A stretch of 64,000 bases of DNA, from assembly GCF_036365525.1 (NCBI RefSeq), contig NC_090380.1:87243658-87307657 (forward strand). The letters run 5' to 3'. Origin of the DNA: Heterodontus francisci (Eukaryota). This document shows positions 14,232 through 61,233 of this stretch, in pieces. A program made the position numbers and the translations under genes. Within the stretch, counting starts at the first letter, position 1; each line of letters begins with the position of its first letter. The notes under the pieces are model-generated. The model was not told the origin of the DNA. It ran no database searches and saw nothing but the letters and a program-made list of their open reading frames with translations.

Positions 14232-14570
14232 GCAGTGGTTAGCACCGCAGCCTCACAGCTCCAGCGACCCGGGTTCAATTCTGGGTACTGCCTGTGTGGA
14301 GTTTGCAAGTTCTTCCTGTGTCTGCGTGGGTTTCCTCTGGGTGCTCCGATTTCCTCCCACAAGCCAAAAGACTTGCAGGTTGATAGGTATATTGGCCATT
14401 ATAAATTGCCCCTAGTGTACGTAGGTGGTAGGGAAATATAGGGACAGGTGGGGATGTGGTAGGAATATGGGATTAGTGTAGGATTAGTATAAATGGGTGG
14501 TTGATGGTTGGCACAGACTCGGTGGGCCGAAGGGCCTGTTTCAGTGTTGTATCTCTAAACTAAACTAAAC
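14232..14570 (+). mobile_element. HE1-like V-SINE (tRNA head, V domain, CR1-type tail)
   Basis: gcagtggttagc...gggttcaattc head; V domain tgtgtggagtttgca...ggtgctcc.atttcctccca; tail gggccgaagggcctg...(taaac)n. Confidence 0.85.
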
Positions 14571-19719: not shown

Positions 19720-19769
19720 AACATCGAGGGCCGAAGGGCCTGTACTGCGCTGTAATGTTCTAATTCTAA
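19720..19769 (+). mobile_element. 50-bp extreme 3' end of a CR1
   Basis: Exact reverse complement of 41777-41826 (stem-loop plus ttctaa tail). Confidence 0.85.
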
Positions 19770-19943: not shown

Positions 19944-21002
19944 CTACATCCTCTTCTTTTCCTTTAAGCAATTTTTCTTACTTAAACTTCTTGTAACAAT
20001 TGGCGATCGAGTGAATCGATTAGTTTTCTGCACATTTGCAACTTTCTTCAAGTACTTGAAAATTGAGTGAAAGCAAATTGTGGGGGCCAAGTCGTGGTTT
20101 TCAGTGCCTGCAGAAACCTGCGCACAGTCCATCCTTACGGAGGATACAGGCTTGTCTAGAGGTTTGGGGCTCAGTAACCAGTTACGGCATTTTTTTTCAA
20201 TCCAATTCCGACCTATTTGCCCAACGTTTTGATGGTCTGCATCATGAGCAGAGTTTATGAAGGCCACAGCATATACTTTGCTCATTACCTCCGTACGTTC
20301 ATTCAGTAGGTTGACAAATGTCAACCCGCCATAGCCATGAGCTATGAAGGCTACATTCATTGCAGTAGACTTCGATATAAAGTGGTCCCAAATGTAGATG
20401 ACGTGCTGTTCAGCACTTTCAAAACCTCTTTTTGGTATTTGTTTAAGTGTTAGGTTATATTTTTGATCAGAATCACATTGTTTTTTCTCTTCTGCGGCTG
20501 CGACATCGTCTTGCTTAATAGGCATAAAGTTGTCATTACTGTTTAATACAATCACTTCATAGTGCTCCCTTAGAGCTTTCTTAATAAAAGGGATTTGAGT
20601 GCCAGTATCCAGACAATCATGCACAATCAGTTGCTGGGACCATGTACCGGCCCGCATGACTCCACGATCTTGCAGTAGAACAATTAACTTGCAAGGATTA
20701 GTCAAGGCACCTTCGCTCATGAAGCAGAAACTTTTCGGGCCATCCTCTGCGGCCTCCAGGGGAATATAGACTCGTTTCAGTAGACATTCTTTCTCCAAGA
20801 GTTCGTATACATACTCGGCCAGAACTGTTCCAAAGACTTTGTACCATTGGTGGTTCAAGTTGGTTGCATTACTATATTGTTTGAAAACAAATGGTTGGTT
20901 TGTTTCCGTGTTCCTCAGTTGTCCTTTGTCATTGAAATAGTATTTGAATTCTTTCAGTCTTTTTGCATTTTCCAGTTGTTTAGGAATCACCGGCTCTCCC
21001 AT
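19944..21002 (-). CDS. FAM172B: FAM172/ARB2-family protein (Arb2-like alpha/beta-hydrolase fold), intronless, about 352 aa; probable FAM172B ortholog
   Basis: Motifs YYFNDKGQLR, YVYELLEK, GVMRAGTWSQQLIV..CLDTGTQIPFIK, HVIYIWDHF, AHGYGG and VSAGTENH match FAM172A as recalled. First ATG at 21002 (the track start is TTG). The position beside TRMT10C matches human FAM172BP. Confidence 0.85.
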   Translation of the reverse strand: MGEPVIPKQLENAKRLKEFKYYFNDKGQLRNTETNQPFVFKQYSNATNLNHQWYKVFGTVLAEYVYELLEKECLLKRVYIPLEAAEDGPKSFCFMSEGALTNPCKLIVLLQDRGVMRAGTWSQQLIVHDCLDTGTQIPFIKKALREHYEVIVLNSNDNFMPIKQDDVAAAEEKKQCDSDQKYNLTLKQIPKRGFESAEQHVIYIWDHFISKSTAMNVAFIAHGYGGLTFVNLLNERTEVMSKVYAVAFINSAHDADHQNVGQIGRNWIEKKCRNWLLSPKPLDKPVSSVRMDCAQVSAGTENHDLAPTICFHSIFKYLKKVANVQKTNRFTRSPIVTRSLSKKNCLKEKKRM

Positions 21003-21091
21003 TTTGAGAAAACGATACTCCAAATTAGCTCTTAAGTCAGTAGATAGCCTAAACTAATTATATTGTGCTGTTAATTTGCGATACGACTGTG

Positions 21092-25175: not shown

Positions 25176-27344
25176 CTAGAAAAATAAATACAGTTGTGCA
25201 TGAAAATTAATCATAAGTATTCTGTGAACCAGTTCTTTTCCTCTTTTTTTTTAATGTGCAACTTAATGTCAACTTTTTGATGACCTTGCTTTTGTCGCCA
25301 GTTAATATTGTTTTGAAATTAGGGTGAGTTGAATAAAGCATCTTTACGTTTCAAGATATTTTTGAGGTATCCAATGTAATAATTGAATTGCAAACTAATA
25401 TTGCAAAATAAACTTGATGCTTTTGTACAAAAATAGAATTATGTGCTGGATAGTGGTTGACAACAGTGTTAAAGGTTTATAATCTATAAAGTGTGTCTTT
25501 TACAGATGATTTACTTCAGGGTGTGATGCACCTCAGAGTGCTTTCCACATTCGAACAAGCTTTATCTGTTTGTGATCGGCACAGATCATGTCCATTATAT
25601 TTGCTTAACTCTGCACCATCATCTATTATTTTGAAATAATTGCAGTTAATACTTTATGCATATGTGGAAAGTGGAGATCTTGCATTCCTTTATATGTGGC
25701 ACATGCCCTTATCAACAGTGTAATGTGTTTCGAATCTCAAATCTCCCATGAGTAGCTTATTTCTATATTGCAGGATTGAATGTGCTGATGCTTTGGAATT
25801 CACCCTGTTTATATTATAGATTCAGATCACAAGTAGCATTGGGGAAAGGTGCACAGTTGTTGAAAAGGGTGTTTACAATCTCACCCTTTTGCCATTGGTA
25901 TGCAGTACCTCTAGTGCTGAAGAGAAAAGCTATTTGAAGATGTGATGCTTTGGTACCAGCGGTGCTCGTGTTATTTCTCTTGTATTACAGTCCTGCCCCT
26001 GGACATGGAGGTGCCTCTGGCAAATTGCAGCATTCAAGTTCCCAACTTCAATGTCCACCTGTGACTCAGAAAATTCTAATCTCGAGATTTGTATGCAAAG
26101 ACTAGGAGCAAAGACATTTCCCATGTTTCCCCCCCCCCTGCAGCAAGAGGAAGGGATTTAAGGGTTGTGGAGAAAGGGGCTGACATTTCCTGTTTCAAAA
26201 AAAACTTTAAAAATGCTTAACAAATTTTTTTTTCCTAATTTGGGTCCCTTTGAACCACTTGCTACCTTCTAACAGAGAGGATCTGGCATATAGCTTATTC
26301 CCAAGCCAATACTCGTTTATTAAAATACTGGTAGTTGCACAAGAGAGCCCAGGTGACTTGTTCTGTACAGATTTTCTCCTCTTTACACTCAGGGATAATG
26401 CCTCACCACTGGTAAGGAAGGTTTGTGGGAACCATGGGCGTAAAGGAAGAATTTTTTTCCCAAATGCTACAGATGATTTAATGCAGCAGTGAAGCAATAG
26501 CCATCCATAAAAGTATAATTTACGCATTGAATGTTGAAGGTATTTATTCAAATCATGACTGCTTCTGTTTGTCTTTCCCTCTACAACTGTTTTCTGTCTT
26601 AATTCAGCATTGTGAAAGATTCAGGTTTTTTGGGGGGATAATTACATTTATAATTTTGCAGTGATCAGTGCTTTGATCTTTTTCTGGATAAGATATTGGC
26701 ATAGAATCACTTGAGTTTAATATCCTTTTTGTGGATTTATCTGACGGCCATTATTTGTTGAAGAATTTAGAATTCTCTCAATTTGGTAACTTTTTTTTAT
26801 TTTTGGATTTAGCAGTTTCAAAAGCAGACAGTTGCAATCTCTGTTCCATTTGAGTTGAATTGGAATTCAATTTTTTCCCCACAAGTGGTCAGTTAAAGAA
26901 GGTAGAAAGTGGCACTTGTTGTATAAAGTGCATTGGACTACCCCTCTCTTTTTAAAAAAAAAAAAATCCTCACTTTTGTACAGTTCTTTTGATTTTTATG
27001 AAGAACTACAATTCTGGATATCTGTGCCTCCAAAGCCACTCTAGTAACCTGGATTCTCGAGCAGCATGCATATCTTCCAGAGTAATTCTATGGGTTTGAT
27101 TATCCCTGTGTATTTTGCACTGGCTCAAAGACCTATTTGGATCTGCCTGAGCTGGGAAACGTCAATATTGATATTTCAGGTATTTCCATCAGTTTATCTT
27201 TTTGATCTTTTAATCTTTTTTTTTTCTTCAAGGTGGTGACCAATGCTGGGATGTAGTTCTAATCTCTCTCCCAATTGTCCATTCTTATGGGACTATATAT
27301 TATGTTACATAGAAACATAGAAAATAGGAGCAGGAATAGGCCAT

Positions 27345-30300
27345 TCTTTTATTTTCATTCATGGGATGTGGGCGACGCTGGCCAGGCCAGCATTTAATGC
27401 CCATCCCTAATTGCCCTCGAGAAGGTGGTGGTGAGTTGCCTTCTTGAACTGCTGCAGTCCATTTGGGGTAGGTATACCCACAGTGCTGTTAGAAAGGTAG
27501 TTCCAGGATTTTGACCCGGCGACAGTGAAGGAATGGTGATATAGTTCCAAGTCAGGATGGTGTGTGACTTGGAGGGGAACTTGCAGGTGGTGGTGTTCTC
27601 ATGTATTTGTTGCCCTTGTCCTTCTAGTTGGTAGAGGTCGCGGGTTTGGAAGGTGCTGTCTAAGGAGCCTTGGTGCATTGCTGCAGTGCATCTTGTAGAT
27701 GGTACACACTGCTGCCACTGTGCGTCGGTGGTGGAGGGAGTGAATGTTTGTAGATTGGGTGCAAATCAAGCGGGCTGCTTTGTCCTGGATGGTGTCGAGC
27801 TTCTTGAGTGCTGTTGGAGCTGCACCCATCCAGGCAAGTGGAGAGTATTCCATCACGCTCCTGACTTGTGCCTTGTAGATGGTGGGCAGGCTTTGGGGAG
27901 TCAGGAGGTGAGTTACTCGCCTCAGGATTCCTAGCCTCTGACCTGCTCTTGTAGCCACAGTATTTATATGGCTACTCCAGTTCAGTTTCTGGTCAATGGT
28001 AACCCCTAGGATGTTGATAGTGGGGGATTCAGCGATGGTAATGCTGTTGAATGTCAAGGGGAGATGGTTAGATTCTCTCTTGTTGGAGATGGTCATTGCC
28101 TGGCACTTGTGTGGCGCAAATGTTACTTGCCACTTATCAGCCCAAGCCTGGATATTGTCCAGGTCTTGCTGCATTTCTACACGGACTGCCTCAGTATCTG
28201 AGGAGTCACGGTGCTGAACATTGTGCAATCATCCGCGAACATCCCCATTTCTGACCTTATGATTGAAGGAAGGTCATTGATGAAGCCGCTGAAGATGGTT
28301 GGGCCTAGAACACTACCCTGAGGAACTTCTGCAGTGATGTTCTGGAGCTCAGGTGATTGACCTCCAACAACCACAACCATCTTCCTTTGCGCTAGGTATG
28401 ACTCCAGCCAGCGGAGGGTTTTCCCCCTGATTCCCATTGACCTCAGTTTTGCTCGGGCTCCTTGATGCCATACTCGGTCAAATGCTGCCTTGATGTCAAG
28501 GGCAGTCACTCTCACCTCACCTCTTGAGTTCAGCTGTTTTGTCCATGTTTGAACCAAGGCTGTAATGAAGTCAGGAGCTGAGTGGCCCTGGCGGAACCCA
28601 AACTGAGCGTCACTGAGCTGGTTATTGCTAAGCAAGTGCTGCTTGATGGCATTGTTGATGACACCTTCCATCACTTTACTGATGATTGAGAGTAGGCTGA
28701 TGGGGCGGTAATTGGCCGGGTTGGAATTGTCCTGCTTTTTGTGTACAGGATATACCTGGACAATTTTCCACATTGCAGGGTAGATGCCAGTGTTGTAGCT
28801 GTACTGGAACAGCTTGGCTAGGGGCGCGGCAAGTTCTGGAGCACAGGTCTTCAGTACTATTGCCGGAATATTGTCAGGGCCTATAGCTTTTGCAGTGTCC
28901 AGTGCCTTCATTCGTTTCTTAATATCACGCGGAGTGAATCGAATTGGCTGAAGTCTGGCATCTGTGATGCTGGGGACTTCAGGAGGAGGCTGAGATGGAT
29001 CATCAACTTGGCACTTCTGGCTGAAGATTGTGGCCAATGCTTCAGTCTTATCTTTCGCACTGATGTGCTGGGCTCCCCCATCATTGAGGATGGGGATATT
29101 TGTGGAGCCACCTCCTCCAGTTAGTTGTTTAATTGTCCACCACCATTCACGGCTGGATGTGGCAGGACTGCAGAGCTTAGATCTGATCCGTTGGTTATGG
29201 GATCGCTTAGCTCTGTCTATTGCATGCTGCTTATGCAGTTTGGCACGCAGATAGTCCTGTGTTGTAGCTTCACCATGTTGACACCTCATTTTGAGGTATG
29301 CCTGGTGCTGCTTCTGGCATGCCCTCCTGCACTCTTCATTGAACCAGGGTTGGTCTCCTGGCTTGATGGTAATGGTAGAGTGGGGGATATGCTGGGCCAT
29401 GAGGTTACAGATTGTGGTTGAGTACAATTCTGCTGCTGCTGATGGCTCACAGCGCCTCATGGATGCCTAGTTTTGCATTGCTAGATCTGTTCAAAATCTA
29501 TCCCATTTAGCACGGTGATAGTGCCACACAACCCGAAGGAGGGTATCCTCAATGTAAAGGCGGGACTTCGTCTCCACAAGGACTGTGCGGTGGTCACTCC
29601 TACCAATACAGTCATGGTCAGAAGCATCTGCAGCAGGCAGATTGGTGAGGATGAGGTCAAGTATGTTTTTCCCTTGTGTTGGTTCCTCCACCACCTGCCG
29701 CAGACCCAGTCTAGCAGCTCTGTCCTATAGGACTCGGCCAGCTCGGTCAGTAGTGGTGCTACCGAGCCACTCTTGGTGATGGACATTGAAGTCCCCCACC
29801 CAGAGTACATTTTGTGCCTTTGCCACCCTCGGTGCTTCCTCCAAGTGGTGTTCAACATGGAGGAGTACTGACTCATCAGCTGAGGGAGGGCAGTAAGTGG
29901 TAATCAGTAGGAGGTTACCTTGCCCATATTTGACCTGATTTCATGAGACTTCATGGGGTCCGGAGTCGATTGTTGAGGACTCCCAGGGCAACTCCCTCCC
30001 TACTGTATACTGCTGGGTCTGTCCTGCTGGTGGGACAGGACATACCCAGGGATAGTGATTGCAGTGTCTGGGACATTGTCTGTAAGGTATGATTCCGTGA
30101 GTATGATTGTCAGGTTGTTGCTTGACTAGTCTGTGGGACAAGCCCCCAGATGTTAGTAAGGAGGACTTTGCAGGGTCGACAGGGCTGGGTTTGCCGTTGT
30201 CGTTTCCGGTGCGTAGATCGATGCCGGGTGGTCTGTCCGGTTTCATTCCTTTTTATTAACTTTGTAGCGGTTAGGTACAACTGAGTGGCTTGCTAGGCCA

Positions 30301-30570
30301 TTTCAGAGGGCATTTAAGAGTCAACCACATTGCTGTGGGTCTGGAGTCACATGTAGGCCAGACCAGGTAAGGACAGCAGATTTCCTTCCCTCGAGGACAT
30401 TAGTGAACCAGATGGGTTTTTACAACAATCGACAATGGTTTCATGGCCATCATTAGACTAGCTTTTAATTCCAGATTTATTAATTAAATTCAAATTCCAC
30501 CTTCTGCTGTGGTGGGATTCAAACCCATGTCCCCAGAGAAATACCCTGGGTCTCTGGGTTACTAGTCCAA
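27345..30570 (-). mobile_element. Near full-length single-ORF APE-RT LINE (CR1/L2 supergroup, clade unassigned) with a tRNA-derived 5' head
   Basis: APE remnants (KVLLTNIWGL, QQPD, NILDLILTN, SDHRTV) and RT motifs ([34 protein letters not shown]) across ORFs 29941-30246, 29491-29694, 28177-29460 and 27599-28228. B-box-like GGTTTGAATCC on minus at 30515-30525. Confidence 0.9.
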
Positions 30571-30753
30571 TCCCTTTGGGCCTGCTCCGCCATTCAAAAA
30601 GGATCATGGCTGATTGTCTAATTCAGTACCCTGTTCCTGCTTTCTCCCCATATCCCTTAATCCCTTTGGCATTGAAAAAAAATCTATCTCCTTTTGAATA
30701 TATTTAATGACTTGATCTCCATTGCCTTCTGCGGTAGAGAATTCCACAGATTA

Positions 30754-31100
30754 GGGCGGCGCAGTGGTTAGCACTGCAGCCTCACAACTCCAGCGACCCG
30801 GGTTCGATTCTGGGTACTGCCTGTGCGGAGTTTGCAAGTTCTCCCTGTGACTGCGTGGGTTTTTGCCGGGTGCTCCGGTTTCCTCCCACAGCCAAAGACT
30901 TGCAGGTTGATGAGTAAATTGGCCATTATAAATTGCCCCGAGTATAGGTAGGTGGTAGGGGAATGTCGGGACAAGTGGGGATGTGGTCGGAATATGGGAT
31001 TAGTGTAGGATTAGTATAAATGGGTGGTTGATGGTCGGCACAGACTCGGTGGGCCGAAGGCCCTGTTTCCGTGCTGTATCTCTAAATAAATAAAATAAAT
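30754..31100 (+). mobile_element. HE1-like V-SINE, full length
   Basis: A-box ggcgcagtgg, B-box ggttcgattc, V domain and CR1-like tail (taaa)n. Same family as 14232-14570. Confidence 0.9.
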
Positions 31101-31796: not shown

Positions 31797-34700
31797 TAAT
31801 ATTACTTGTTCTTTTGGTATGTGGACTATTGTAAGAGTCACAGGTACACAAAGCTACTGCAGGAGCCAAACCAACACACACCTCACTCTGTCAGGCTACA
31901 CCCACAACTCCCTGGTCGTGTGTGATGCAACATCGCTTCCTCCAGCGACCTTCACTTACACACAACAACCCCCATTTTTCCAAAGATAAAAACATATGTA
32001 TAATAAAACATTATTTACAAATAAGCAAGTTTAACACTCTCTAAAACGTAGAGGAGGATTGCTTATTTGTCCCAATCTTGTTGTTTTAAACCTCTTCCCA
32101 GAGCTGAGTTTGTCTTTTCGATTTCTTTGACTGTGGCGACTTGGAACTCTGGTTAGCATGTTCTTCCTCTGTGCTCATAGCCTCTGTATGTTCATCTTCA
32201 GGCTTTGTCTTTGAACGTGTCCATGATGCCACAGGGTGGTCACATGTTGTGTTGTACAGCTTTCTGAGCTGACTTCGGTTCCGTCTGAGATTCGCACCAT
32301 TGAGTGTCTGGACCTCGTACAATCTGGGTTGGTCGCATATCCTAGAAACCTCTGCAGGATACCAAGTTCCCAACCTTCTGTCCCACTTGCAATTGAACTA
32401 CTTTTGGTCCTGTTTGCCTGTCATACAATGCCTTCATCTTCCCTTGCTCAGAAAGCTCAGAGAAATGATGACTGGCAACATCACCGGCAGTCCCTCTGGC
32501 CTCCATGTACTTACTGCAACGGACTGAAGCCCAAGGAGAGACTACTGGTCATGTCGTCTCTTCGTTTCAAGATGCCCAGCATTTGTATCCTTTACATGGA
32601 CTGACCCAATATACTTGATCTGGATATTTTCTACTATATTTGATGCATTACTGACGACTTGTGGGGAGGTGGTGGCATAGTGGTAATGTTGCTATATGAG
32701 TAATCCAGAGGTCCAGGCTAATGTCCTGGGGACACTGGTTCAAATCCCACCATGGCAGCTGGTGGAATTTAATTTCAGTTAAATAATTCAATTAATTAAT
32801 CTGGAATTGAAAGCTGTTCTTAGTTTCATGGTGCCATTACTATCATTGATTGTCGTAAAAACCCATTTGGTTTACTAATGACCCTTGGGGAAGGAAATCT
32901 GCCATCCTTAACTATGCTGGTTTACATGTTACTCCAGACCCACATCAATGTGGTTGACTCTGAACAGCCCTCGGGTGTCAAGGGCAATTAGGCAACAAAT
33001 GCTGGCCTTGCCAGCGCCACCCACATCGCGTGAAAGAATAAAAAAAAATTGTGACGATTCGTAAATCTTGGCATACTGGAAGTCTTATGACAGCTGGTCC
33101 AGTTGTGTCTACAATATAAAACATTCATGGTATTCATCTGGAGCTCCCATAGCTGCACTGCAAGGATATCATTCCAATGCACTTGATTGGAGAACCATTG
33201 ATGGCAGTCAGCCTAAATGTGGTGGGGTCATACCATAGATTCCCATTTCCTTAAGTACATGTCCTTCAGTATGTGGATGGGCAGAATATTTGCACTTGTT
33301 CTGGTGGTTTGAGCTTATGCTTTCCACTCTTTTGCAGATATATAGTCATGATCGTGGCAAATGCCTCAGATTGCATAATAGCATTGACGTTGATCCAAAT
33401 TAACAATGTGAAATGCTTGCTTGCTCTTCGCATTAGTGCATTCTTCACCTGTGTTCTCCTGACAATCTGTCTCTTTGCTGACCTGATGTACCTGCTTGGG
33501 CTTTTGTTCTGTATTAGCATACCTTTTGTTGCATTTGCTATTCTGTCTTGCAGATGTTCTCTGCCAGCATTCCTGTGTGCAGTATCTGAGCTCAGCCTTC
33601 TGCACTGCCTTCCTAATGTCCTTGCATGCCACAAGCTTTGCACTGGCCCTGGTACGCCAGACAACTGCGAATTGGGTGAGTCAGGCCACATTTGCCAGCA
33701 GGCCTAGCAGACTTCTGACCCTTGGTTACCATACCAATTGTTGTAGCCACCTCCAACACTTGTAACTGTTGGCACCCAGCCATGATGGCTTCAGATTTCC
33801 TTCCATCACTGAGTAGTGCATCTATGATATGCCCTTTCTCCTTTTCTAGCAGGTCTTTTTGAAAGGCCTCTATTGGAGTAGATGCGATTACTGGCTCTAT
33901 TACCCGCCCCAGCAATTCATTATCTGCAAAGTCGCATTCTTGAGCTTTGTCTCGGCACCTTCCAACAAACTGGTCAATGGACTCATCTTGCCTTTGCCAG
34001 TAGGTCATCAGCTCAAGCCTCAGCAATTGACCATCACCTTGAGTTGCTGCTTCAGGAATGTCCATAGCTTGCTTGGGTCAGCTGACAATCCTGATGTGTT
34101 GATCTGTTCTAGGCCCTTGTTGCCCAGTCCGATATTGATTTTTGATAGCTTATTTATTTGGTTCGCTCACTTCTTGATCTAGGAAACACTTCCATCTGTT
34201 GTTGAAACAATTTAAATTGAGATGCTGTGGATTCTTGAATACCATATTCTGGATGATCCTGCTGTTATATAAATATGGGGCTTTTTACAGTTACAGCTTT
34301 GTTTCCTTTTTTTTCTGGCCTGCCCCTTTTAAGAGTGAGCCTACAGCTGCCTTTGTTTACACTGCTTGTTATTTTTTAAACTGAGGGAGCAGTTCTTTGT
34401 TTAAAAGCTTTTTTTTTTAAAACTGAGAACAGGTTATTTTAAGAGGTCTGCAGCTTGTAGTACCAGCAGCTGCCACGGTCAGCCTTTTACTTTGCTAGAC
34501 CTCTAGTGGTGCTGTTGAGCACTTCCCTCTCTTTTCAGCTTAGGCCCTGCCCACTAAGCAAAAAAACTAGGAAAACTAAAGCAGTAATGGCTGTACTACT
34601 GCTTTACAAATTGTTCGACCCACTGCTAGATTAGGTGAAAGCTCCAATCTCCTGGAAAGTTTCCTACTGTACTCAACACCTCTTGGTCCTGTCTGTGGTC

Positions 34701-38444: not shown

Positions 38445-40300
38445 GAGAACCAGGCTGAATATAGAAAATTTGGAGGGGAAATGAAGAGAGAATGAGACTG
38501 ACAGCTAACATAAAAGGGAATCCAAAAGTCTCTTTAGGCATATAAATAGTAAATGGCTGGTAAAAGGAAGAGTGGGTCTAATTAAGGGCCAAAAAGGGAA
38601 TGTATGCATGGAGACACGGTTGGGGGGTGGGGTGGGGAAGGGGCATAGCTGAGGTACTAAATGAGTACTTCGCATCTGTCTTTACCAAGGAAGAAGATAC
38701 TGCTTGAGTCATAATGAAGGAGGAGGTAGTTGAGACAGTGGATGGGCTAACAGTTGATAAAGAGGAGATATTGGATAGGTTGGCTGTGCTTAAAGTTGAC
38801 AAGTCAACAGGGCCAGATGAGATGTAACCAAACATACTGAGGGAAGTAAGGGTGGAAATTGCAGAGGCAGCGACCATAATCTTCCAATCCTCCTTAGATA
38901 ACAAGGGGTGCCAGAGGACTGGAGAATTGTAAATATTAGACCTTTGTTCAGAAAAGGGTGTAAGGATAAGCCCAGCAATTACAGGCCTGTCAGTTTAACT
39001 TCAATGTTGGGAAAGCTTTTGGAAATGATGATTTGGGACAAAATTAAATCACTTGGACAAATGTGGATTAATTAAGGAAAGCCAGCATGGATTTGTTGAG
39101 GGCAAATCATGTTTAACTAACTTGCTTGAGTTTTTTGATGAGGTAACAGAGGGTTGATGGGATGTACATGCCCAAAAGGCATTTGATAAAGTGCTTGTCA
39201 GCAAAAAAAAAGTTAGAGCCCATGGACTAAAAGGCACAGTAGCAGCAGCGATACAAAGATGGCTGAGTAACAGGAAACAGAGTAGTTGTCAACAGTTTTT
39301 TGGACTGGAGAAAGATATATAGTGGGGTTCCCCAGGGGTCAGTGTTAGGGCCACTGCTTTTCTTGATCTATATTAATGACTGAGACTTTGGTGTACAGGG
39401 CACAATTTCAAAATTTGCGGATGACGCAAAACTTGGAAGTATTATGAACCGTGAGGAGGTTAGTGATAAACTTCAAGAGGGTATAGGCTGGTGGAATGGG
39501 CAGACAAGCGATAAATGAAATTTAAAGCAGAGAAGTGTGAAGGGATTCATTTTGGTAGGAAGAATGAGGAGAGCCGATATAAAATAATGGGTACAATTCT
39601 AAAGGGGGTGCAGGAGCAGAGGATCCTGGGGATATATGTGCACAAATCATTGAAGATGGCAGGGCAGGTTGAGAAAGCATACAGGATCCTGGGCTTTATA
39701 AATAGGGGGATAGCGTACAAAAGCAAATAAGTTATGGTGAACCTATATAAAACCCTGGTTTGGCCTCAGCTGGAGTTTTGTGTCCAGTTCTGGGTACCAC
39801 ACTTTAGGAAGCATGTGAAGGCATTAGAGAGGGTGCAGAAGATTCGTGAGAATGGTTCTTGTGATTAGGAACTTCAGTTACCTGGATAGATTAGAGAAGC
39901 AGGGTCAGTTCTCCTTGGAGGAGATTGAGGAGTTTTAATAGAGGTTTTCAAATCGTGTAGGGTTTTGACAGAGTAGACAGGGAGAAACTGTTCACATTGG
40001 CGAGTAGTCGAGAATCATTTGACACCTACTTAAGGTGATTGGCAAATGAAGCAATAGCGACGTGAGAAAAAGTTTTTTTACACATTTGAGTGGTTAGGAT
40101 CTGGAGTGCACTGCCTGAGATTGTGGTGGAAGCAGATTCAAATTGAGGCCTTCAAAAGAGAATTGTATAATTATCTGAAGTGCCAAAATTTGCAGGGCTA
40201 TGGGGAAAAGGTGGGGCAGAGGGACGAGATGAGTTTTTTTTTTTGCAGAGAGCCGGCAGAGACTTTACAGGCCAAATGGCCTCCTGTAACCATTCTATGA
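38445..40300 (+). mobile_element. Degraded CR1 LINE, ORF2 3' half
   Basis: Remnants of [38 protein letters not shown] and KFKAEKCEGIHFGRKN; tail cattctatga. Confidence 0.9.
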
Positions 40301-41383
40301 TTTTTAAGTAGATCTGTTCATCCACAGCTTACCACTCTATTTGTAGAGTTTGCTATTTTAGATTATATTTCTTTTCAAAGGTATACTACTTCATATTTAT
40401 CTTTCTTGAACTACTTTTGCTGATACCTGCCCAGTCTTCTAATCTGTCACTCATTTTGCATTCTTCTATCTGCCATGCCCCTTCCTTCCAATTTGGGGAT
40501 GTCAGCAAATTTTGATATTAGTTCCTCATGCTCATGCCCAAATAATTTAATGAGAGGTCTCAGCACATCTCCGGGGCAACAACATCTTGTCAGTCTCATT
40601 AACTCTCTCAGTTTTATTTTTATCTTTCATGCAGCCCTATACTTGCTGCCACATTCTCTTTAATGGCAAGGTCTTAATTTTGAAGCCATTGTCTAATGTG
40701 GCACTACATCATAATAAAATCATAGAATAGTTACAGCCAGAAGGAGGCCATTCGGCCCATAACGTCTCTACCAGCTCAGAGTTACTGCAGCTCGTCCCAC
40801 TCCTGCCTTTTCCTCATAGCGCTGTAATTTGTTTTGATTGAGTTAATTATCCAATTCCCTTTTGAAAATCACAATTGAATCTGCCTCCACCACACTCTCA
40901 GGCAGTGAGTTCCAGATCACACATTCCCTTTGTCAGTGAGTAATTTTTTTAAAGCATTCATCTAGTTAAACCAATTTGATCAGTCCTTGATTTTCTGATT
41001 GCATCTCATAGCATTAATGAGCAATGCCAAATTCTTATATTTCTATTAAAACCCTCAATGAAGTTTTTGCCACTGATGACCTTTTTGATTAAGTGTTCTC
41101 CTTTCATGTTTTATGCTGTATAGACTTGACAAGTGATGTTGTGAATATATCACTAAAGTGGTTAAAAGAAATTGAATAGAGACAAAATAATTTGTTGCAA
41201 GTCTGTGCTTAATGCTAAAGAGTACCTTATTCATCCACAGGTTAATTTTATATTGGGCATTCTTTTGAGACATGTCATTTTAAAACCTTTGCTAATGAAA
41301 TAGCTGAAGACCATTTATATTTTTTCTGATCATTTATAAATGCTGACACAACTTTTAACCTTTTTAATTTGGTGTCCAAACAG

Positions 41384-41776: not shown

Positions 41777-44700
41777 TTAGAATTAGAACATTACAGCGCA
41801 GTACAGGCCCTTCGGCCCTCGATGTTGCGCCGACCTGTGAAACCATCTGACCTACACTATTCCATTTTCATCCATATGTCTATCCAATGACCACTTAAAT
41901 GCCCTTAAAGTTGGCGAGTCTACTACTGCTGCAGGCAGGGCGTTCCACGCCCCTACTACTCTGCGTAAAGAAACTACCTCTGACATCTGTCCTATATCTT
42001 TCACCCCTCAACTTAAAGCTATGTCCCCTCGTGTTTGCCATCCTCATCCGAGGAAAAAGACTCTCACTATCCACCCTATCTAACCCTCTGATTATCTTGT
42101 ATGTCTCTATTAAGTCACCTCTCTTCCTCCTTCTCTCTAACGAAAACAACCCCAAGTCCCTCAGCCTTTCCTCGTAAGACCTTCCTTCCATACCAGGCAA
42201 CATCCTAGTAAATCTCCTCTGCACCCTTTCCAAAGCTTCCACATCCTTCCTATAATGCGGTGACCAGAACTGCACGCAATACTCAAGGTGCGGCCTCACC
42301 AGAGTTTTGTACAGCTGCATCATGACCTCGTGGCTCCGAAACTCGATCCCCCTACTAATAAAAGCTAACACACCATATGCCTTCTTAACAGCCCTATTTA
42401 CCTGGGTAGCAACTTTCAGGGATTTATGCACCTGGACACCAAGATCTCTCTGCTCATCTACACTACCAAGAATCTTCCCATTAGCCCAGTACTCTGCATT
42501 GCTGTTACTCCTTCCAAAGTGAATCACCTCACACTTCTCCGCATTAAACTCCATTTGCCATCTCTCAGCCCAGCTCTGCAGCCTATCTATGTCCCTCTGT
42601 ACCCTACAACATCCTTCGGCACTATCCACAACTCCACTGACCTTAGTGTCATCCGCAAATTTACTAACCCACCCTTCTACACCCTCTTCCAGGTCATTTA
42701 TAAAAATGACAAACAGCAGTGGCCCCAAAACAGATCCTTGCGGTACACCACTAGTAACTAAACTCCAGGATGAACATTTGCCATCAACCACCACCCTCTG
42801 TCTTCTTTCAGCTAGCCAATTTCTGATCCAAAGCTCTAAATCACCTTCAACCCCATACTTCCGTATTTTCTGCAATAGCCTACCGTGGGGAACCTTATCA
42901 AACGCCTTACTGAAATCCATATACACCACATCCACTGCTTTACCCTCATCCACCTGTTTGGTCACCTTCTCGAAAAACTCAATAAGGTTTGTGAGGCACG
43001 ACCTACCCGTCACAAAACCGTGCTGACTATCGCTAATGAACTTATTCTTTTCAAGATGATTATAAATCCTGTCTCTTATAACCTTTTCCAACATTTTACC
43101 CACAACCGAAGTAAGGCTCACAGGTCTATAATTACCAGGGCTGTCTCTACTCCCCTTCTTGAACAAGGGGACAACATTTGCTATCCTCCAGTCTTCCGGC
43201 ACTATTCCTGTCGACAATGACGACATAAAGATCAAGGACAAAGGCTCTCCCTTTAGATCCTTCCTGGCTAGCTTGTAACTCTCAAGCGCCCTAACTGAAC
43301 CTTCACGTCTTATCCTAACTTCTTCCTCTTGACAAGCGCTTCAACTTCTTTGGTAAACCACGGCTCCCTCGCTCGACAACTTCCTCCCTGCCTGACAGGT
43401 ACATACTTATCAAGGACACGCAGTAGCTGCTCCTTGAATAAGCTCCACATTTCGATTGTTCCCATCCCCTGCAGTTTCCTTCCCCATCCTACGCATCCTA
43501 AATCTTGCCTAATCGCATCATAATTTTCTTTCCCCCAGCTATAATTCTTGCCCTGCGGTATATACCTGTCCCTGCCCATCGCTAAGGTAAACCTAACCGA
43601 ATTGTGATCACTATCACCAAAGTGCTCACCTACATCTAAATCTAACACCTGGCCGGGTTCATTACCCAGTACCAAATCCAGTGTGGCATCGCCCCTGGTT
43701 GGCCTGTCTACATACTGTCAGAAAACCCTCCTGCACACACTGGACAAAAACTGACCCATCTAAAGTACTCGAACTATAGTATTTCCAGTCAATATTTGGA
43801 AAGTTAAAGTCCCCCATAACAACTACCCTGTTACTCTCGCCCCTGTCGAGAATCATCTTCGCTATCCTTTCCTCTACATCTCTGGAACTATTCGGAGGTC
43901 TATAAAAGACTCCCAACAGGGTGACCTCAGCTCTCCTGTTTCTAACCTCGGCCCATACTACCTCAGTAGACGAGTCCTCAAACGTCCTTTCTGTCGCTGT
44001 AATACTCTCCTTGATTAACAATGCCACACCACCCCCCCCTCTTTTACCATCTTCTCTGTTCTTACTGAAACATCTAAATCCCGGAACCCGCAACATCCAT
44101 TCCTGTCCCTGCTCTACCCATGTCTCCGAAATGGCCACTACATCGAGATCCCAGGTACCAACCCATGCTGCAAGCTCACCCACCTTATTCCGGATGCTCC
44201 TGGCGTTGAAGTAGACACACTTTAAACCAGGTTCTTGCTTGCCAGTGCCCTCTTGTGTCCTTGTAACCTTATCCCTGACCTCACTACTCTCAACATCCTG
44301 TACACTGGAACTACAATTTAGGTTCCCATTCCCCTGCTGAATTAGTTTAAACCCCCCCCCCCCCCCCCCCCGAAGAGCACTAGCAAATCTCACCCCCCCA
44401 GGATATTGGTACCCCTCTGGTTCAGGTGAAGACCATCCTGTTTGTAGAGGTCCCACCTACCCCAGAAAGAGCCCCAATTATCCAGGAAACCAAAACCCTC
44501 CCTCCTGCACCATCCCTGCAGCCACGTGTTCAACTCCTCTCTCTCCCTATTCCTCGCTTCGCTATCGCGTGGCACGGGCAACAACCCAGAGGTAACAACT
44601 CTCTTTGTTCTCGCTCTAAGCTTCCACCCTAGCTCCCTGAATTTCTGTCTTAAATCCCCATCTCTCTTCCTACCTATGTCGTTGGTGCCTATGTGGACCA

Positions 44701-45600
44701 CGACTTGGGGCTGCTCCCCCTCCCCCCTAAGGATCCCAGAAACACGATCCGAGACATCACGAACCCTGGCACCTGGGAGGCAACACACCTCGTTCCCACA
44801 GAACCTCCTATCTGTTCCCCTAACTATGGAGTCCCCAATGACTAATGCTCGGCTCCTCTTCCCCCTTCCCTTCTGAGCAACAGGGACAGACTCTGTGCCA
44901 GATACCTGTACCCCATTGCTTACCCCTGGTAAGTCGTCCCCCGCAACAGTATCCAAAACGGTATACCTGTTGGTGAGGGAAACTGCCACAGGGGATCCCT
45001 GCACTGCCTGCTGGTTCCCCCTCCTTCCCCTGACGGTAACCCATCTACCTACTTCTTTTACCTGAGGTGTGACTACCTCCCCATAACTCCTCTCAATAAC
45101 CCCCTCTGCCTCCCGAATGATCCGAAGTTCCTCCAGCTCCAGTTCCCTAACGCGGTTCTCGAGGAGCTGGAGTTGGGTGCACTTCCCGCAGATGCAGTCA
45201 GCAGGGACACTCTTGGCGACCCTTACCTCCCACATTCTGCAGGAGGAACATACAACTGCCTTAACTTCCATTCCCACTATTCTAAATTCCCAACAAATCT
45301 ACTGAAAAACCAAAAAAAAAAAGTCAAAACTTGTTAGGTTAGCAATCCAACGGACAGAACTTTTTAAATAAAAAGCTTACCTTATCAACACACCAGAGTC
45401 CTTTTTTTTGGTTAGAGGAGGAGGGTGGGTGGGAGACACTACATGTGTAGTGTCTCGGGTACAGCCACCACCCAAGTATATAGTTTTTACTTACCCAGCA
45501 GTCCCCTGGTCCTCCGAAAACAAAAGGGAATTAACTTTTAACTTACACTGAAATTGACTTCCCAGCTGCAAGTTCGCTCCGCACCTCCGCTACTGTCAAA
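41777..45600 (-). mobile_element. Near full-length young CR1 LINE: ORF1 (Zn finger, coiled coil, SGNH esterase) and ORF2 (APE-RT) with frameshifts and an internal deletion near 43250
   Basis: ORF1 44390-45277 (CSSC..CICGKC, GDS, VHIGTND, DGLHLN). APE at 43310-44456 (YFNARSI, ISETW, YRPP, GDFN, SDHN). RT at 41895-43241. (ttctaa)n tail. Confidence 0.95.
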
Positions 45601-45929: not shown

Positions 45930-48900
45930 TAATAGGTTTTGGAAAAAAACGTCAACAGTGATATCACAGGAAAGCTGCAAGGTGATTGGTTGGTGAGTAA
46001 CAGCTGTTGGGAAATAACTCGAAATAGCTCCAAGTAACTGAAGTAAAGAGAAAGGCCTACAGTTCTTTTTCATATAGAAGGTAGTTTTTTTTTTTAGGCA
46101 GTCTAGGTTCCTTGTGTAAATCTAATTTTTGGGCATTTTAAGCGAGTAAAAACAGTTTAAAATAAAACAGTGATGTCACAGGAAAACTATAAGTTCATTG
46201 GTAAGTAACTGCAAATTTGAATTACCAATTCTAAGTTGATTTCAGATTAGAGGTGAATAGGAGAAATATTTTACAGATTAAAAACTAAAGACCAGTCGGA
46301 AATTTAAAAAACAAATTAAAATCTAATTAAATAAAAGAGATGCAGGGCCAGGCAATGTGTTGCACCTGCATGATGTGGGAGCTGGAGGACCTCATTGTGG
46401 TTCCTAGTGACCACATCTGTAGCAAGTGTTAGCTGCTCGAGGAACTCCGGCTCGGAGTTGATGAGCTGGAGTCTGAGCTTCAGACACAGCGACCCATCGG
46501 GGAGGGGGAAAGTTACCTGGACGCTGCGTTTCAGGGGGCAGTCACACCCCTTAGATTAACTACCTTGAATTTGGCCAGTGGTCAGGGACAGGAGGGTGTG
46601 ACTGAGTGAGGCAGGTAGAGGGATCCAGGAGGTAGTGTTGCAGGAGCCTCAGCCCTTGTCCTTGTCCAACAGGTTCGAGATTCTTGCTCCCTTTGTGGAC
46701 CAGAGCAGGGACTGTAGGGCGGATGAGCAAACTGACCATAGCACCGTGGTACAGGGAGCCATTCAAATGGGGGGGAGAAAAGAGAAATGTAGTCGTAATC
46801 GGGGATAGTATAGTTAGGGGCATAAACACTGTTTTCTGTGGCCAGGATCGAGACTCGCGAAGGCTGTGTTGTCTACCTAGTACCAGGGTTCAGGATATCT
46901 CATCTGGACTGCAGAGGAACTTGGAGTGGGAAGGGAAAGATCCAGTTGTTGTCCACATAGGTACTAACAATATAGGTAGAACGAGGATAGCGATTCTGCT
47001 GAGGGAATATGAGCAGAACCAAAAAACCACGAGCTAATTGGCACAGGGTCAATAAGATTAAAGAGGTAAATGCGTGGCTCAAAGATTGGTCTGGGAGTAA
47101 TGGGTTCGAATTCATGGGACATTGGCACCAGTACTGGGGAAGGAGGGAGCTGTTCCGATGGGACGAGCTGCACCTTAATCATGCTGGGACCTGATTCCTG
47201 GCGAATCGCATTACTAGGGCTGTAGGTAGGGCTTTAAACTAAATAGTGGGTGGTTGGGGGGGGGGGGGGGGAAGGGGGAGGTGGGGGTGTTCAGTTGCAT
47301 GGAAAATTAGGAAGTCAGAGTTCAGGTTAGTGATGAGGCTGATTGTTAACAGAAAATAAAAGGTAGGGACAGAACGTGTGAGCGTCCTATTGCACCAAGG
47401 AATTGTACAAGAGTAGGGAAATTTGATAATAGAACAAACGTAAAGGCTTTGTATCTGAATGCACAAAGCATTCTGAGTAAAATTGAGTTAACAGCGCAAA
47501 TAGAGATGAATGGGTATGATTTAGTTGCGATTACGGAGATGTGGTTGCAGGGAAACCAGGTTTGGGAATTGAATATCCAAGGGTATTCAGTATTTCGGAA
47601 GGATAGGTAGGAAGGTAAAGGAGGTGGTATAGCTTTCTTAGTAAAGGAAGAGATCGGTGCTGTAGTGAGAAATGACATAGGCACTGGAGATCAAGATGTC
47701 GAATCAGTCTGGGTAGGAATAAGAAATAGCAAAGGAAAGAAGTCCCTGGTGGGAGTAAGCTACAGGTCCCCAAACAGTAGTTCTGCAGTGGGGCACAGTA
47801 TTATCCAGGAAATACTGGGGGCTTGTAAAAAAGGTACGGCAATAATCATGGGTGATTTTAATATGCATATAGACTGGATTAATCATATTGGCAAGGGTAG
47901 CCTCGGGGGAGAGTTTATTGAATGTATTAGCAATTGTTTTTTGGAGAAATATGTTGTGGAACCAACCAGGGAGCAGGCTATTCTAGATGTGGTATTGTAC
48001 AATGAGGTGGGATTAATTAATCTCATAGTTAAGGATCCTCGAGGGAAGAGTGATCATAGCATGCTAGAATTTCAAATTCAGTTTGAGGGCGAGAAACTGG
48101 AGTCCCACACGAGCATTCTGGAGTTAAACAAAGATAATTACATAGGCATGAGGCAGATTTGGCCCTAGTGGACTGGGCAGGAAGACTAAAAGGTAGGACA
48201 GTTGATGAGTAGTGGTAGATATTTAAGGAGATATTCAATTCTTCCCAACTAAAATATATTCCAGAGAGGAAGAAAGATTGTAAGAGGGGGAAAAACATCT
48301 ATGGCTAAGCAAGGAAGTTCTTCCTTCTTCTTCTTTGGCCTCCTTGTCTGGAGAGACAATGCGTAAGCGCCTGGAGGTGGTCAGTGGTTTGTGAAGCAGC
48401 GCCTGGAGTGGCTATAAAGGTCAATTCTAGAGTGACAGACTCTTCCACAGGTGCTGCAGATAAAATTGGTTGTCAGGGCTGTTACACAGTTGGCTCTCCC
48501 CTTGCGCTTCTGTCTTTTTTCCTGCCAACTGCTAAGTCTCTTCGATTTGCCACAATTTAGCCCAGCCTTCATGGCTGCCCGCCAGCTCTGGCGATCACTG
48601 GCAACTGACTCCCACGACTTGTGATCAATGTTACAGGACTTCATGTCGCATTTGCAGACATCTTTAAAGCAGGGACATGGACGGCCGGTGGGTCTCATAC
48701 TAGTGAGGAGCTCGCTGTACAATGTGTCCTTGGGGATCCTGCCATCTTCCATGCGGCTCACATGGCCAAGCCATCTCAAGCGCCCCTGGCTCAGTAGGGT
48801 GTATATGTTGGCCACCTCGAGGACTTCTGTGTTGGAGATATGGTCCTGCCACCTGATACCAAGGACTCTCTGGAGGCAGCGAAGATGGAATGAATTGAGA

Positions 48901-51697: not shown

Positions 51698-52794
51698 GTG
51701 TGTGAGAAGGAGCCAAGCTCAATCATTGCATTTGCACTCAGCTGCAAGGAATACAAGAACGTTGTAGAAGATCTTGGACGAGAATCTGTGATGAATGGGA
51801 GTGACGATGGAGTACAACAGCCAAATAATGCGGACAGACCAAAGACCAATAGCCTTGCAAGGCACTTGGAAAGCTGCAGCAGTCAAGGAAATCGCAGCAG
51901 TGATTCTGAACAAACATATGATGGTGATGGAGACAAACAGAAGAAACATCTTGGAAACCCACATGTGGAACTACAGTTTTCAGACGCCAATGCCAAGTTT
52001 TACTGTCGAATTTATTACGCTGAAGAATTCCACAAAATGAGGGAAGTGATCTTGGCAAACAATGAAGATGACTTCATCCGATCTCTATCTCACTGTGTGC
52101 CATGGCAAGCCCGAGGAGGCAAATCAGGAGCATCTTTTTATGCTACAGAAGATGACCGCTTTATTCTGATGCAGATGCCTCGTTTGGAAGTACAGTCATT
52201 CCTGGATTTTGCTCCTCATTATTTTAATTATATTACAACTGCCGTTCAGAAAAGACCGACAGCATTGGCAAAAATTCTGGGAGTATATCGAATAGGCTAC
52301 AAAAACTCTCAGAACAATACAGAGAAGAAACTTGATCTTTTGGTTATGGAGAATCTCTTTTATGGGAGAAAAATGGCGCAAGTTTTTGATTTGAAAGGTT
52401 CTTTAAGGAATCGAAATGTTCAAACTGAAACGGGAAAAGAGACATGTGATGTTGTATTACTGGATGGAAACCTATTGAAAATGATTCGCGATAACCCTCT
52501 TTACATTCAGTCACACTGCAAGGCTGTGCTGCGGGCATCCATTCATAGTGATGCATATTTTCTGTCAAGCCATCTCTTCATTGACTATTCCCTACTTGTG
52601 GGCCGAGATGACATTAAAAATGAATTGGTTGTTGGAATTATCGATTGATATCAGGACATTTACTTGGGATAAAAAACTTGAAATGGCTGTAAAGTCTACG
52701 GGAATCTTAGGTGGGCAAGGGAAAATGCCAACTGTGGTTCCCCCAGAACTTTTATAGAACGAGGTTTTGTGAAGCAATGGACAAGTACTTCCTG
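51698..52794 (+). pseudogene. PIKFYVE: Processed PIKFYVE fragment covering the C-terminal PIPK kinase domain
   Basis: Intronless CEKEPSSIIAFALS...ARGGKSGA...FDLKGSLRNR...IDYSLLVG...GIID/IRTFTWDKKLE...YRTRFCEAMDKYFL. Frameshifts at about 52647 and 52752. The catalytic Lys codon appears as ATG at 52169-52171. Confidence 0.92.
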
Positions 52795-55437: not shown

Positions 55438-55770
55438 TTTTTTATTTTAGAGATACAGCACTGAAACAGGCCCTTCGGCCCACCGAGTCTGTGCCGACCA
55501 TCAACCACCCATTTTATACTAATCCTACATTAATCCCATTACCCTCTCACATCCCCACCTTCCCTCAATTCCCCTACCACCTACATATACTAGGGGCAAT
55601 TTATAATGGCCAATTTACCTATCAACCTGCAAGTCTTTGGCTGTGGGAGGAAACCGGAGCACCCGGCGAAAACCCCCGCGGAGAACTTGCAAACTCCGCA
55701 CAGGCAGTACCCTGAATCGAACCCGGGTCGCTGGAGATGTGAGGCTGCGGTGCTAACCACTGCGCCACTG
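55438..55770 (-). mobile_element. HE1-like V-SINE
   Basis: Reverse complement of the 30754-31100 family. Confidence 0.9.
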
Positions 55771-58749: not shown

Positions 58750-59050
58750 CTTGAGAGGGCACTTAAGAATCAGCCACATTGCTGTGGGTTTGGAGTCACA
58801 TATAGGCCAGATCTGGTAAGGATGGCAGGTTTCCTTCCCTGAAGGACATTAGTGAACCAGATGGGTTTTTACAATAATCTATAGTTTCATTGCACCATTA
58901 CTGAGACTAGCTTTCAATTCCAGACTTTTATTAATTAATTGAATTTAAATTCCAGCAGCTTCCGTGGTGGCCTTTGAACCTGTGTCCCCAGGGCATTAGC
59001 ATGGACATTGAATTACTAGTCCAGTGATATTACCATTACGCTACTGTCTC
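58750..59050 (-). mobile_element. Second copy of the SINE/head of the tRNA-headed LINE family
   Basis: Colinear with 30305-30570 (ccacattgctgtggg..tggagtcac, ggacattagtgaaccagatgggtttttacaa, ttactagtcca). A-box-like tagcgtaatgg on minus. Confidence 0.85.
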
Positions 59051-60210
59051 CGCACAGAAGAGATTCACAAGGATGCTGCCAAGAAGGACCTATTCCCGTT
59101 AGCAGAGCGTCAACAACCAGCGGGTTTAGTTTTAAAATAATGGGTAGAAGTGTTAGAGGGGAGTTGAGTAGTTTTTTTTCACCCAGAGGGTGGTGGGGGT
59201 CTGGAACTCACTGCCTGAAAGGGTGATAGAGGCAGAAACCCTCATCGCGTTAAAAACAAAACACTTGGAAATGCACTTTAGGTGTAACCTCCACGGCTAG
59301 GGACCAAGATCTAGAAAATGGGAATAAGCTGCATAGCTTTTTTTCAGCCAGCACAGACACGATGACTGAAAAGCTTCCTACGGTGTCAGAGTTTTATGAT
59401 TCTATGTCTAAGCTAGATTTTTTTTTTCAAGCTGCAGAAATGTTTGTCTCTGGTACTGAGAGGGAGCGCAGCTTCGACTTTTAAATCAGGCAAAAACTCA
59501 TCAACCCAAGAAGCGCTCTGAGCATTGTACTGACTATTGTCCTGTGCCATCCGTTATGGCTAGGGGAAAGATGTTTCAGTCTTCCGAAAAAATCATCAGG
59601 CCAGCTTATTGTCGTACTTCTAGCAAATATTTCTACATCTTTCTTTCCTATGTTTTGCACTTACTGAAGCAGGCACTTTTTTTTAGATTAAAAGTGGTAC
59701 TGATCAACATAACTGATTTGATTTGGACCCAATATAGAATGGTAAAAGTTTACAGCAATCACGTCTGTGGTGATTGTTAGTCGGAGCCATTCAAAAATAA
59801 TTTCACTGCTCTGTATGGTTCCAGTAGCTGTTTATCTTCCTCTGCTTCAAATAGTTATGCAATTTTCTCATACAAAGATTCACTAGTCTATGCCTTACTG
59901 TTTGCTGTGGCTAAGCATTCTATATCTTCAAGGCAGTTTTTGTAAAGCTTAAAACCTATTCATATATTGAACCAAAAATCTAGATCCTCAGTTAACCTAT
60001 TAAACTGAAGCCATTAAATGGGTTAGTAAACGTATTCCCTTATGTTACACATTTTAGTAGATAGACCTCAAGAGGCAGACAAGGCAAAATACTGTGAATA
60101 CTAGAAATTTGAAATACAGAAAATGCTGGAAATAGTCAGCATATGAGGCAGCATCTGTGGAGAGAGAAACAAAGTTAACATTTTTGATTGACCTTTCATC
60201 AGAACTGAAA

Positions 60211-61233
60211 CAGTAGCATAGTGGTAATGTTACTGGATTAGTAACTGGACTCGAAGCTGGGACTAATGCTCCGGAGAGACAAGTTCATATCCTACCATGG
60301 TAACTGGGGATCTTAAATTTAATTAATAAATCTGGAATAAACAGCTCGTCTCAGTAATGATTATGAAACTACCATGTTGTTGTAAAACACACTTGGTTCA
60401 CTAATCTCCTTCAGTGAAAGAATTCTGCTGTCCTAACCCGGTGTGGCTGTTGTCACTCTAGACCCGCAGCAACGTGGTTGACTCTTAACTGTCCTCTGAA
60501 ATTGCCTAGCATGCCACTCCAGTTATGTCAAACCGCTACACAAGTCAAATAAGAATAAAACCAGATGGACCACTAGGCACCAGAAATGACACAGGCACAC
60601 CTTTCCCAGTCGACCCTGCAACGTCCTCCTCACTAACATCTCTGGACTTGTGCCAAAATCTGTCCCACAGACTCGTCAAGCAACAGCCTGACATAGTCAT
60701 ACTCACGGAATCAAACCTACAGCCAATGTCCCAGACTCCTCCATCACCAGAGGTGGCGGCACAGTGATCTGCAGGTGAGAGGCAGTGGCCCAGGGAGTCC
60801 TCAATATTGACTCTGGACCCCATGAAGTTTTGTGGCATCAGGTCAAACATGGGCAAGGAATCCTTCTGATTACCACCTACTATCCTCCCTCAGCTGATCA
60901 GTCAGTGCTCCTCCATGATGAACACTAGTTAAAAGAAGCACTGAGGGTAGCAAGGACACAGAATGGAATCTGGGTGGCGACTTCAGTGTCCGTCACCGAG
61001 TGTCTTGGTAGCACCACTACTGACCGGGCTCCGAAGGACATATCTACTGGGCTGGGCCTGTGGCAGGTAGTGAGAGAACCAACAGGAAAAACCTACTTGA
61101 CCTCGTCCTTACCACCGACCTGTCGCAATGCATTTCTCCATGACAGTATTGGTAAGAGTGATCACTCCTTGTGGAAACAAAGTCTCGTCGTCTGATTGAG
61201 AACACCCTACATAGTGTAGTATGGCACTACACT
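60211..61233 (+). mobile_element. 5' part of a second tRNA-headed LINE copy (head plus APE domain)
   Basis: A-box TAGCATAGTGG (60214-60224) and B-box-like AGTTCATATCC (60282-60292), then the shared body, then LSHRLVKQQPDIVILTES and later APE remnants. Truncated by a CR1 at about 61235. Confidence 0.85.

Follow-up and report, generated by a model that had tools for sequence, protein, structure and literature searches.

A tRNA-headed Zenon LINE of elasmobranchs and a SINE that probably arose from it by internal deletion

How does a SINE come to share its head and body, as well as its tail, with a LINE? The question is raised by a short tRNA-headed element in the window (the whole 64,000-nt stretch of DNA analysed here), whose features are collected in Table 1. 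In the standard model, a SINE is born by the addition of a small-RNA head to LINE-derived parts, with LINEs being transcribed by Pol II and SINEs by Pol III (PMC5786205, PMC10886601). The sequence-only reading that preceded this work stated that SINE-LINE pairs normally share only the tail. This is true as a rule, but derivatives that keep both ends of their LINE are in print (Persaeus and the bipartite SINEs of RTE and Vingi elements). The unusual point here is that the LINE itself carries the tRNA head.

The element has the anatomy that had been claimed for it. Its two flanking ttgtg repeats enclose exactly 385 bp, and a run of nine A residues stands at the 3' end. A blastn search with the element against the window gave four non-self matches: 59056-58755 (76%, E 1e-57), 30563-30306 in LINE copy 1 (75%, E 2e-48), 60213-60496 in LINE copy 2 (67%, E 1e-18) and 27420-27343 (77%, E 2e-11), which pairs with the final 72 nt, in the tail. 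Because these matches reach both ends of the LINE, the short element corresponds to ~310 nt from the LINE's 5' end fused to ~70 nt from its 3' end, as the sequence-only reading had described it with a first part of ~300 bp. The likeness of the two heads is not limited to generic tRNA boxes. Behind the B box, identity over the ~170 nt of the body lies at 76-88% in each of the six pairwise comparisons among the four window copies, with pair scores of 77-219 compared with 10-14 for the best of 200 shuffles. In the tail, 58 of the 69 positions aligned with the 3' end of the LINE are identical (score 63, best shuffle 10). The jump from head to tail holds as anatomy but is not clean, with six unmatched letters at the junction. 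Likewise, the similar copy that had been placed at 58750-59050 is indeed a second SINE copy, but only ~6 nt of its tail are left before unrelated DNA begins. The 32664-33048 element is non-coding, short, multicopy and flanked by target site duplications (TSDs), and it carries a LINE-type tail, as SINE2 elements do.

The head itself (32664-32760) is evidently tRNA-derived, with both an A box and a B box present, spaced by 64 nt. In the whole window six such pairs were found. Five mark SINE heads; in the sixth, which belongs to the head of LINE copy 1, the A-like box falls in flanking DNA. At a 90% threshold, ARAGORN calls a tRNA in the 32664-33048 SINE as well as in the majority head of the four copies, which it folds into a cloverleaf having a long extra arm; at 80%, none of 200 shuffles of the head passes. 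At its default threshold the program called no tRNA in the SINE head, and Rfam searches of single copies gave no tRNA match and nothing else relevant. As a matter of speculation, young Zenon heads might inflate the counts of tRNA loci in shark genomes; a shark genome paper describes many tRNA loci, some of them intron-containing.

Table 1. Features of the window, with positions counted from its first letter.
Feature	Position	Strand	Remarks
Full-length SINE	32664..33048	+	Read as a Zenon derivative shortened by internal deletion; carries head, body, tail and A9
TSD, left	32659..32663	+	ttgtg
TSD, right	33049..33053	+	ttgtg
Pol III A box	32673..32683	+	0 mismatches to the consensus pattern; 9 nt past the SINE's first base
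Pol III B box	32737..32747	+	0 mismatches to the consensus pattern
AT-rich linker and body	32760..32972	+	Common to the SINE and the LINE 5' UTR (LINE 30500-30306)
Putative deletion junction	32973..32978	+	Six letters of SINE 32664-33048 that match neither side
SINE tail	32979..33048	+	End of the LINE ORF (~3 codons and the stop), then the 3' UTR with its stem-loop and the A run
Second SINE copy	58751..59056	-	Head, body and the first ~6 nt of the tail; 30306-type junction
Zenon LINE copy 1	27343..30572	-	Head (first ~25 nt absent), then 5' UTR, a single decayed APE-RT ORF and 3' UTR; no ORF1
Zenon LINE copy 2	60207..61229	+	Head intact, A box included, and joined to the ORF region as in copy 1; 3' part gone
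Longest open piece of the LINE copy 1 ORF	28177..29466	-	RVT_1, E 1e-30
3' join point of the SINE family	27407..27419	-	Just ahead of the ORF stop codon
Region in which the 5' joins of the SINE family fall	30274..30306	-	30277, 30279, 30302, 30306
Upstream half of a canonical CR1 3' end	30573..30760	-	Split by LINE copy 1; other half at 27291-27345
Second tRNA SINE family, presumably HE1-like	14232-14569, 30756-31094, 55438-55771, 58220-58537	+, +, -, -	Four copies, 79-91% alike
Near full-length canonical CR1	41895-45298	-	GDSL esterase ORF1, endonuclease, RT; control
321-codon frame, presumably PIKfyve-like	51683-52648	+	PIP5K domain, no introns, between CR1 pieces; probably a processed retrocopy
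Uninterrupted 369-codon frame, presumably FAM172-like	19944-21053	-	Arb2 domain; single-exon gene or retrogene
469-codon frame, presumably TRMT10C-like	974-2383	-	tRNA m1G methyltransferase domain

The LINE that matches the SINE at both ends is ~3.2 kb long and has a single ORF, whose APE part was read from broken frames and whose RT part was recognized by an RVT_1 domain match. Since its endonuclease-type motifs begin ~410 nt from the 5' end, there is no room for an ORF1. The tail is predicted to form a long stem-loop fold, and at the 3' end of copy 1 only a short A-rich stretch is left. Behind the point at which the SINE breaks off, copies 1 and 2 are 84.5% identical over 710 aligned positions. 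The tRNA head that had been claimed for the LINE is complete on copy 2 at 60207, whereas the copy at 30572 lacks the first ~25 nt, including the A box. We take the tRNA-like head to be part of the LINE's own 5' end on several grounds: its junction with the ORF region is common to the two window copies; copy 1 went as one unit into the 3' end of an older canonical CR1 and split it (the flanks match 51485-51647 and 51665-51699 in order); a contig of sequencing run X15, possibly an RNA run, spans 30144-30508; and published consensuses have the same arrangement (see below). By eye, the head types of the two copies differ, that of copy 2 (60207-60330) being Squalus-like and that of copy 1 (30572-30430) Carcharodon/Scyliorhinus-like. 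Inverted repeats also occur in the window, as the pairs 40098-40304 / 40716-40918 (73%) and 48326-48510 / 53516-53700 (94%) and as an exact 50-bp inverted match (19720-19769 / 41777-41826).

To which group does this LINE belong? With a length of ~3.25 kb, no ORF1, one APE-RT ORF and an A tail, it is assigned to elasmobranch Zenon of the CR1 group. Zenon is defined by the absence of ORF1 and by a poly-A tail (Stuart et al., 2026; PMC13343379), and both features show here, the lack of ORF1 in the LINE and the A tail in the A9 end of the SINE. Loose ends at 27347-27362 are T-rich on the + strand in all four sequencing runs described below. According to the same paper, elasmobranch Zenon elements group with crustacean ones and are not formally annotated in a repeat repository (PMC13343379). 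We compared the published Zenon consensuses by eye over the first 400 letters of each. All seven elasmobranch consensuses in the supplement, from five species (sharks and a ray), begin with a tRNA-like head (PMC13343379); they start 5-10 nt before the A box and continue through the body into the ORF, with a clear B box in six of the seven. The head is absent from the three non-elasmobranch Zenon consensuses of the supplement, two from hagfish and one from coelacanth. Two motifs from the window match five and six consensus rows, the rows listed being all Zenon and alike by eye over the window's 5' 400 nt; the motifs are present in the CarCar, HypSab, RhiTyp, ScyCan and SquAca consensuses, in which the same head leads into the same ORF start. 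The word 'tRNA' is absent from the text of this paper and from the part of its supplement that was covered, and the paper describes no short derivative.

In an RT tree of 52 rows, the window LINE and two butterfly proteins belong to one clade of 34 rows (100/99), and the canonical CR1 of the window stands outside it; no named Zenon reference is among the rows. Of 156 relative loci, 39 combine a long ORF with 450 nt or more of upstream sequence; these served as a control for the head, a control that is thin for close kin as only L001, L006 and L081 among the 39 fall in the Zenon-like clade. A single relaxed pair of A and B boxes was found among them, in L006; it sits in a short direct repeat and was rejected as a tRNA-like head. 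ARAGORN found no tRNA in the 60 of the 156 loci that were tested, and blastn of the SINE and the LINE ends against all 156 gave no match. Exact family motifs had no matches in viral contigs or in metagenome contigs, and in protein scans of viral contigs 0 of 1 and 0 of 34 candidates were confirmed. Among the relatives, 76 animal-type LINE loci (L081-L156) lie inside prokaryote genome bins, many of them bins of bivalve symbionts, and are likely host DNA binned with the symbiont.

Sequencing data were used to ask how the short form behaves as a family. Four runs from four organisms were mapped on 27250-30680 at 80% likeness (811108, 703275, 717636 and 38205 records), low-share metagenome rows being left aside; at this likeness repeat-derived joints are possible, and as the runs consist of contigs, contig depth is no copy number. 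Joints of head to tail occur in all four runs, with a fixed 3' join ~three codons ahead of the stop and several 5' joins. Among the joints listed, 13 of 15 link 27412-27448 to 30274-30321 (20591 more joints exist). Joint 27417>30279 is found in 31, 18, 16 and 11 contigs of the respective runs, 27417>30302 in 3, 18, 18 and 0, 27417>30306 in 2, 7, 9 and 1, and 27417>30277 in 12, 1, 2 and 9. Moreover, loose ends that continue as LINE tail are located at 30277/30279 (523, 901, 741 and 63 records) and, in two of the runs, at 30302 (453 and 354 records). The joints contain 0-7 letters from neither side, and the 30306 join lies within a 5/6 match between the two sides; both SINEs of the window belong to the 30302-30306 class. 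The summed depth over the body is 2.6-7.3x that at the ORF start and in the head bin 0.8-1.1x, values that are no copy number and in which diverged SINE heads may drop below 80%. The short form is a multicopy family, as the sequence-only reading had supposed, and an abundant one. In one deep contig of 1919 nt (run X15, record 15; 30148-30251 + 30307-30407), 696 other letters separate the body from the ORF start and ~1 kb more lies upstream; it could come from a variant element or a host transcript, or reflect a nested insertion.

The nearest known counterpart is Persaeus, a short internally deleted derivative of head-less lepidopteran Zenon that has arisen at least four times and has kept the ORF end and 3' UTR (Wang et al., 2019; PMC6740152). 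Like Persaeus, the shark element consists only of the 5' end of a Zenon LINE with the ORF end, 3' UTR and poly-A; it shares the size range of 260-390 bp and the high copy number, as well as a variable 5' break, microhomology and, presumably, a repeated origin. Unlike the shark element, which took over its A and B boxes from the LINE and has hardly any middle, Persaeus is described as having no tRNA homology or Pol III promoter and a variable unrelated middle. Because the two boxes are present, the shark SINE resembles Persaeus in origin but stands outside the Persaeus family. Because the parent LINE carries the head, the element is at once a true tRNA SINE; it is best described as both things together, a Persaeus-like deletion derivative and a tRNA SINE. 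The bipartite SINEs Bov-tA, AfroSINE and SINE2-1_ACar of RTE and Vingi elements likewise combine 5' and 3' parts of the partner LINE with a tRNA head (Kojima, 2018; PMC5786205). In contrast to the case presented here, their head is described as added after the deletion and absent from the LINE (PMC5786205).

A tRNA head, a LINE-type tail and the same hosts are also features of HE1 (V domain), SacSINE1 (Deu) and CmiSINE (CORE). Identity with SacSINE1 or Deu was rejected, as the printed SacSINE1 head and Deu alignment are by eye unlike the element, and so was identity with a Meta domain, whose printed form is by eye unlike the body. CmiSINE, with its tRNA-Ala head, CORE and L2 tail, was rejected too, and it was not found in the elasmobranch data searched. 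The HE1-like family of the window has no blastn match to the 32664-33048 element; its 3' end matches canonical CR1 ends at 6655-6728 and makes it an ordinary tail-only pair. In the parts of the open literature covered, no description was found of a tRNA head on elasmobranch Zenon or of this SINE.

Which came first, the head on the LINE or the SINE? The sequence-only reading had offered two origins, namely that the SINE arose by deletion of the LINE or that the LINE arose when an ORF joined a SINE head. The analysis supports this pair of origins, with the addition that they are not exclusive and probably took place in turn. In the order we prefer, to which we assign a probability of about 0.7, Zenon gained its head in the elasmobranch ancestor and a deletion subsequently made the SINE. 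That the LINE gained its head is suggested by the non-elasmobranch Zenon consensuses, which have none. A Zenon element, probably in the ancestor of sharks and rays, would thereby have received a 5' module derived from a tRNA, complete with A and B boxes and folding like a long-arm tRNA; this module is now the LINE's own 5' end. An internal deletion of ~2.86-2.89 kb, beginning in the 5' UTR and ending at the final codons of the ORF, would then have left the head, the body and the 3' recognition tail. A later deletion fits because the SINE has essentially no sequence of its own and because its joins fall at several points of the LINE 5' UTR, a pattern that may reflect either recurrent deletion or secondary shortening of the longest form. 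Persaeus, with its identical layout and several origins from Zenon, offers a precedent for this route. From the boxes and the position of its 5' end, the SINE would be transcribed by Pol III from its internal boxes, and the common tail, the A run and the TSD suggest that the Zenon protein copies its RNA in trans by target-primed reverse transcription. Copying in trans via a common tail is an established mechanism for pairs of LINEs and SINEs.

The reverse order would begin with a tRNA SINE that took a Zenon tail, after which a Zenon template switch onto SINE RNA gave the LINE its head and body. The four window copies leave the root unplaced, the structure by itself gives no order, and donation by the SINE through a template switch could fit. 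As other Zenons are headless, the head had to come from a tRNA or a SINE; many ordinary SINEs use Zenon tails (ZenoSINE and bivalve SINEs), and template switching is an accepted route of module exchange. However, the switch would have been needed exactly at the border of body and tail with zero SINE-only letters, and the LINE sequence runs unbroken through all the 5' join points of the SINE family. Moreover, the body distances between the four copies (two SINEs, two LINEs; n=4) give a star-like pattern in which the SINEs have no branch to themselves, and the body resembles neither of the printed Deu and Meta domains by eye. We regard this order as unlikely. By eye, the SINE heads are intermediate between the Squalus-type and Carcharodon/Scyliorhinus-type LINE heads, which is compatible with either order.

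A mixed history, in which SINE and LINE repeatedly exchanged 5' modules via their common 300 nt by recombination or template switching and neither is a simple parent, would account for the coexistence of several junction classes with at least two head types and for the many records (856, 631, 461 and 70 in the four runs) that part from LINE copy 1 at 30430 and then follow the other body type. Yet ordinary subfamily turnover gives the same variation and no mosaic copy is demonstrated, which makes such a history quite improbable. Nested insertions are common in the window, but that the SINEs merely adjoin truncated LINEs is hardly tenable with the same junction in two window copies and seven published consensuses, nor is a one-off genomic deletion with the short form in four of four runs and with a TSD of its own.

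We consider it possible, if doubtful, that elasmobranch Zenon is an autonomous coding LINE whose 3.2-kb RNA is made by Pol III from the captured tRNA promoter and translated without a cap, with T runs purged for this reason and with SINEs spawned repeatedly by single deletions. By eye, all of the published elasmobranch consensuses start where a tRNA gene would, and the boxes are kept across sharks and rays. On its sense strand the LINE has two T4 runs in 4253 nt (one in 3230 and one in 1023), while the window's canonical CR1 has 51 over 11287 nt, a deficit with a binomial P of 1e-5 in which the copies are not independent. T3 runs number 11 against 22 expected under base shuffles (P ~0.003-0.007), the lowest count in 244 windows of 3.2 kb, while A4 runs are as expected (16 vs 17). 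In the LINE ORF, TT stands at 0.76 and T3 at 0.38 of expectation; among the 109 relative ORFs the lowest values are higher, at 0.80 and 0.53. The one T4 of copy 1 overlaps a premature stop where relatives have Arg, which suggests that it arose by decay after insertion. Among the changes listed (40 of 292), none of the 13 majority changes to A creates a run. Over the first 400 letters of the published consensuses, T4 was seen by eye in none of the seven elasmobranch Zenons and in all three from hagfish and coelacanth.

Several results speak against a Pol III LINE. T4 alone gives 1 vs 4.5 expected (P 0.05), the T3 deficit is gone under dinucleotide shuffles (P 0.14), and synonymous-codon shuffles show no deficit (0 vs 1.2 and 0.4). 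A3 is somewhat low in the LINE ORF too (0.70). Pol III RNA lacks a normal cap, and nine ATGs lie upstream of the likely LINE ORF start at 30246. Kojima (2024) argues that Pol II is obligatory for autonomous elements. One relative, L082, whose 5' end lies off its contig, has an intact ORF of 953 codons (34-2892) with one T4 in 2859 nt and TT at 0.80 of expectation. The decayed HE1-like SINEs contain three T4 runs in 1332 nt, with 16 T3 runs against 19 expected, and are a weak positive control because decayed copies of true SINEs contain T4.

With the head on an autonomous element across sharks and rays, a SINE would arise here by deletion alone. The parent LINE and its SINE derivative can be compared base for base. 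The case also puts within reach of a direct test whether a retrotransposon RNA of 3 kb that is translated can be a product of Pol III in a vertebrate. The finding also corrects the annotation of a very abundant elasmobranch repeat, and it may bear on inflated counts of tRNA loci in shark genomes.
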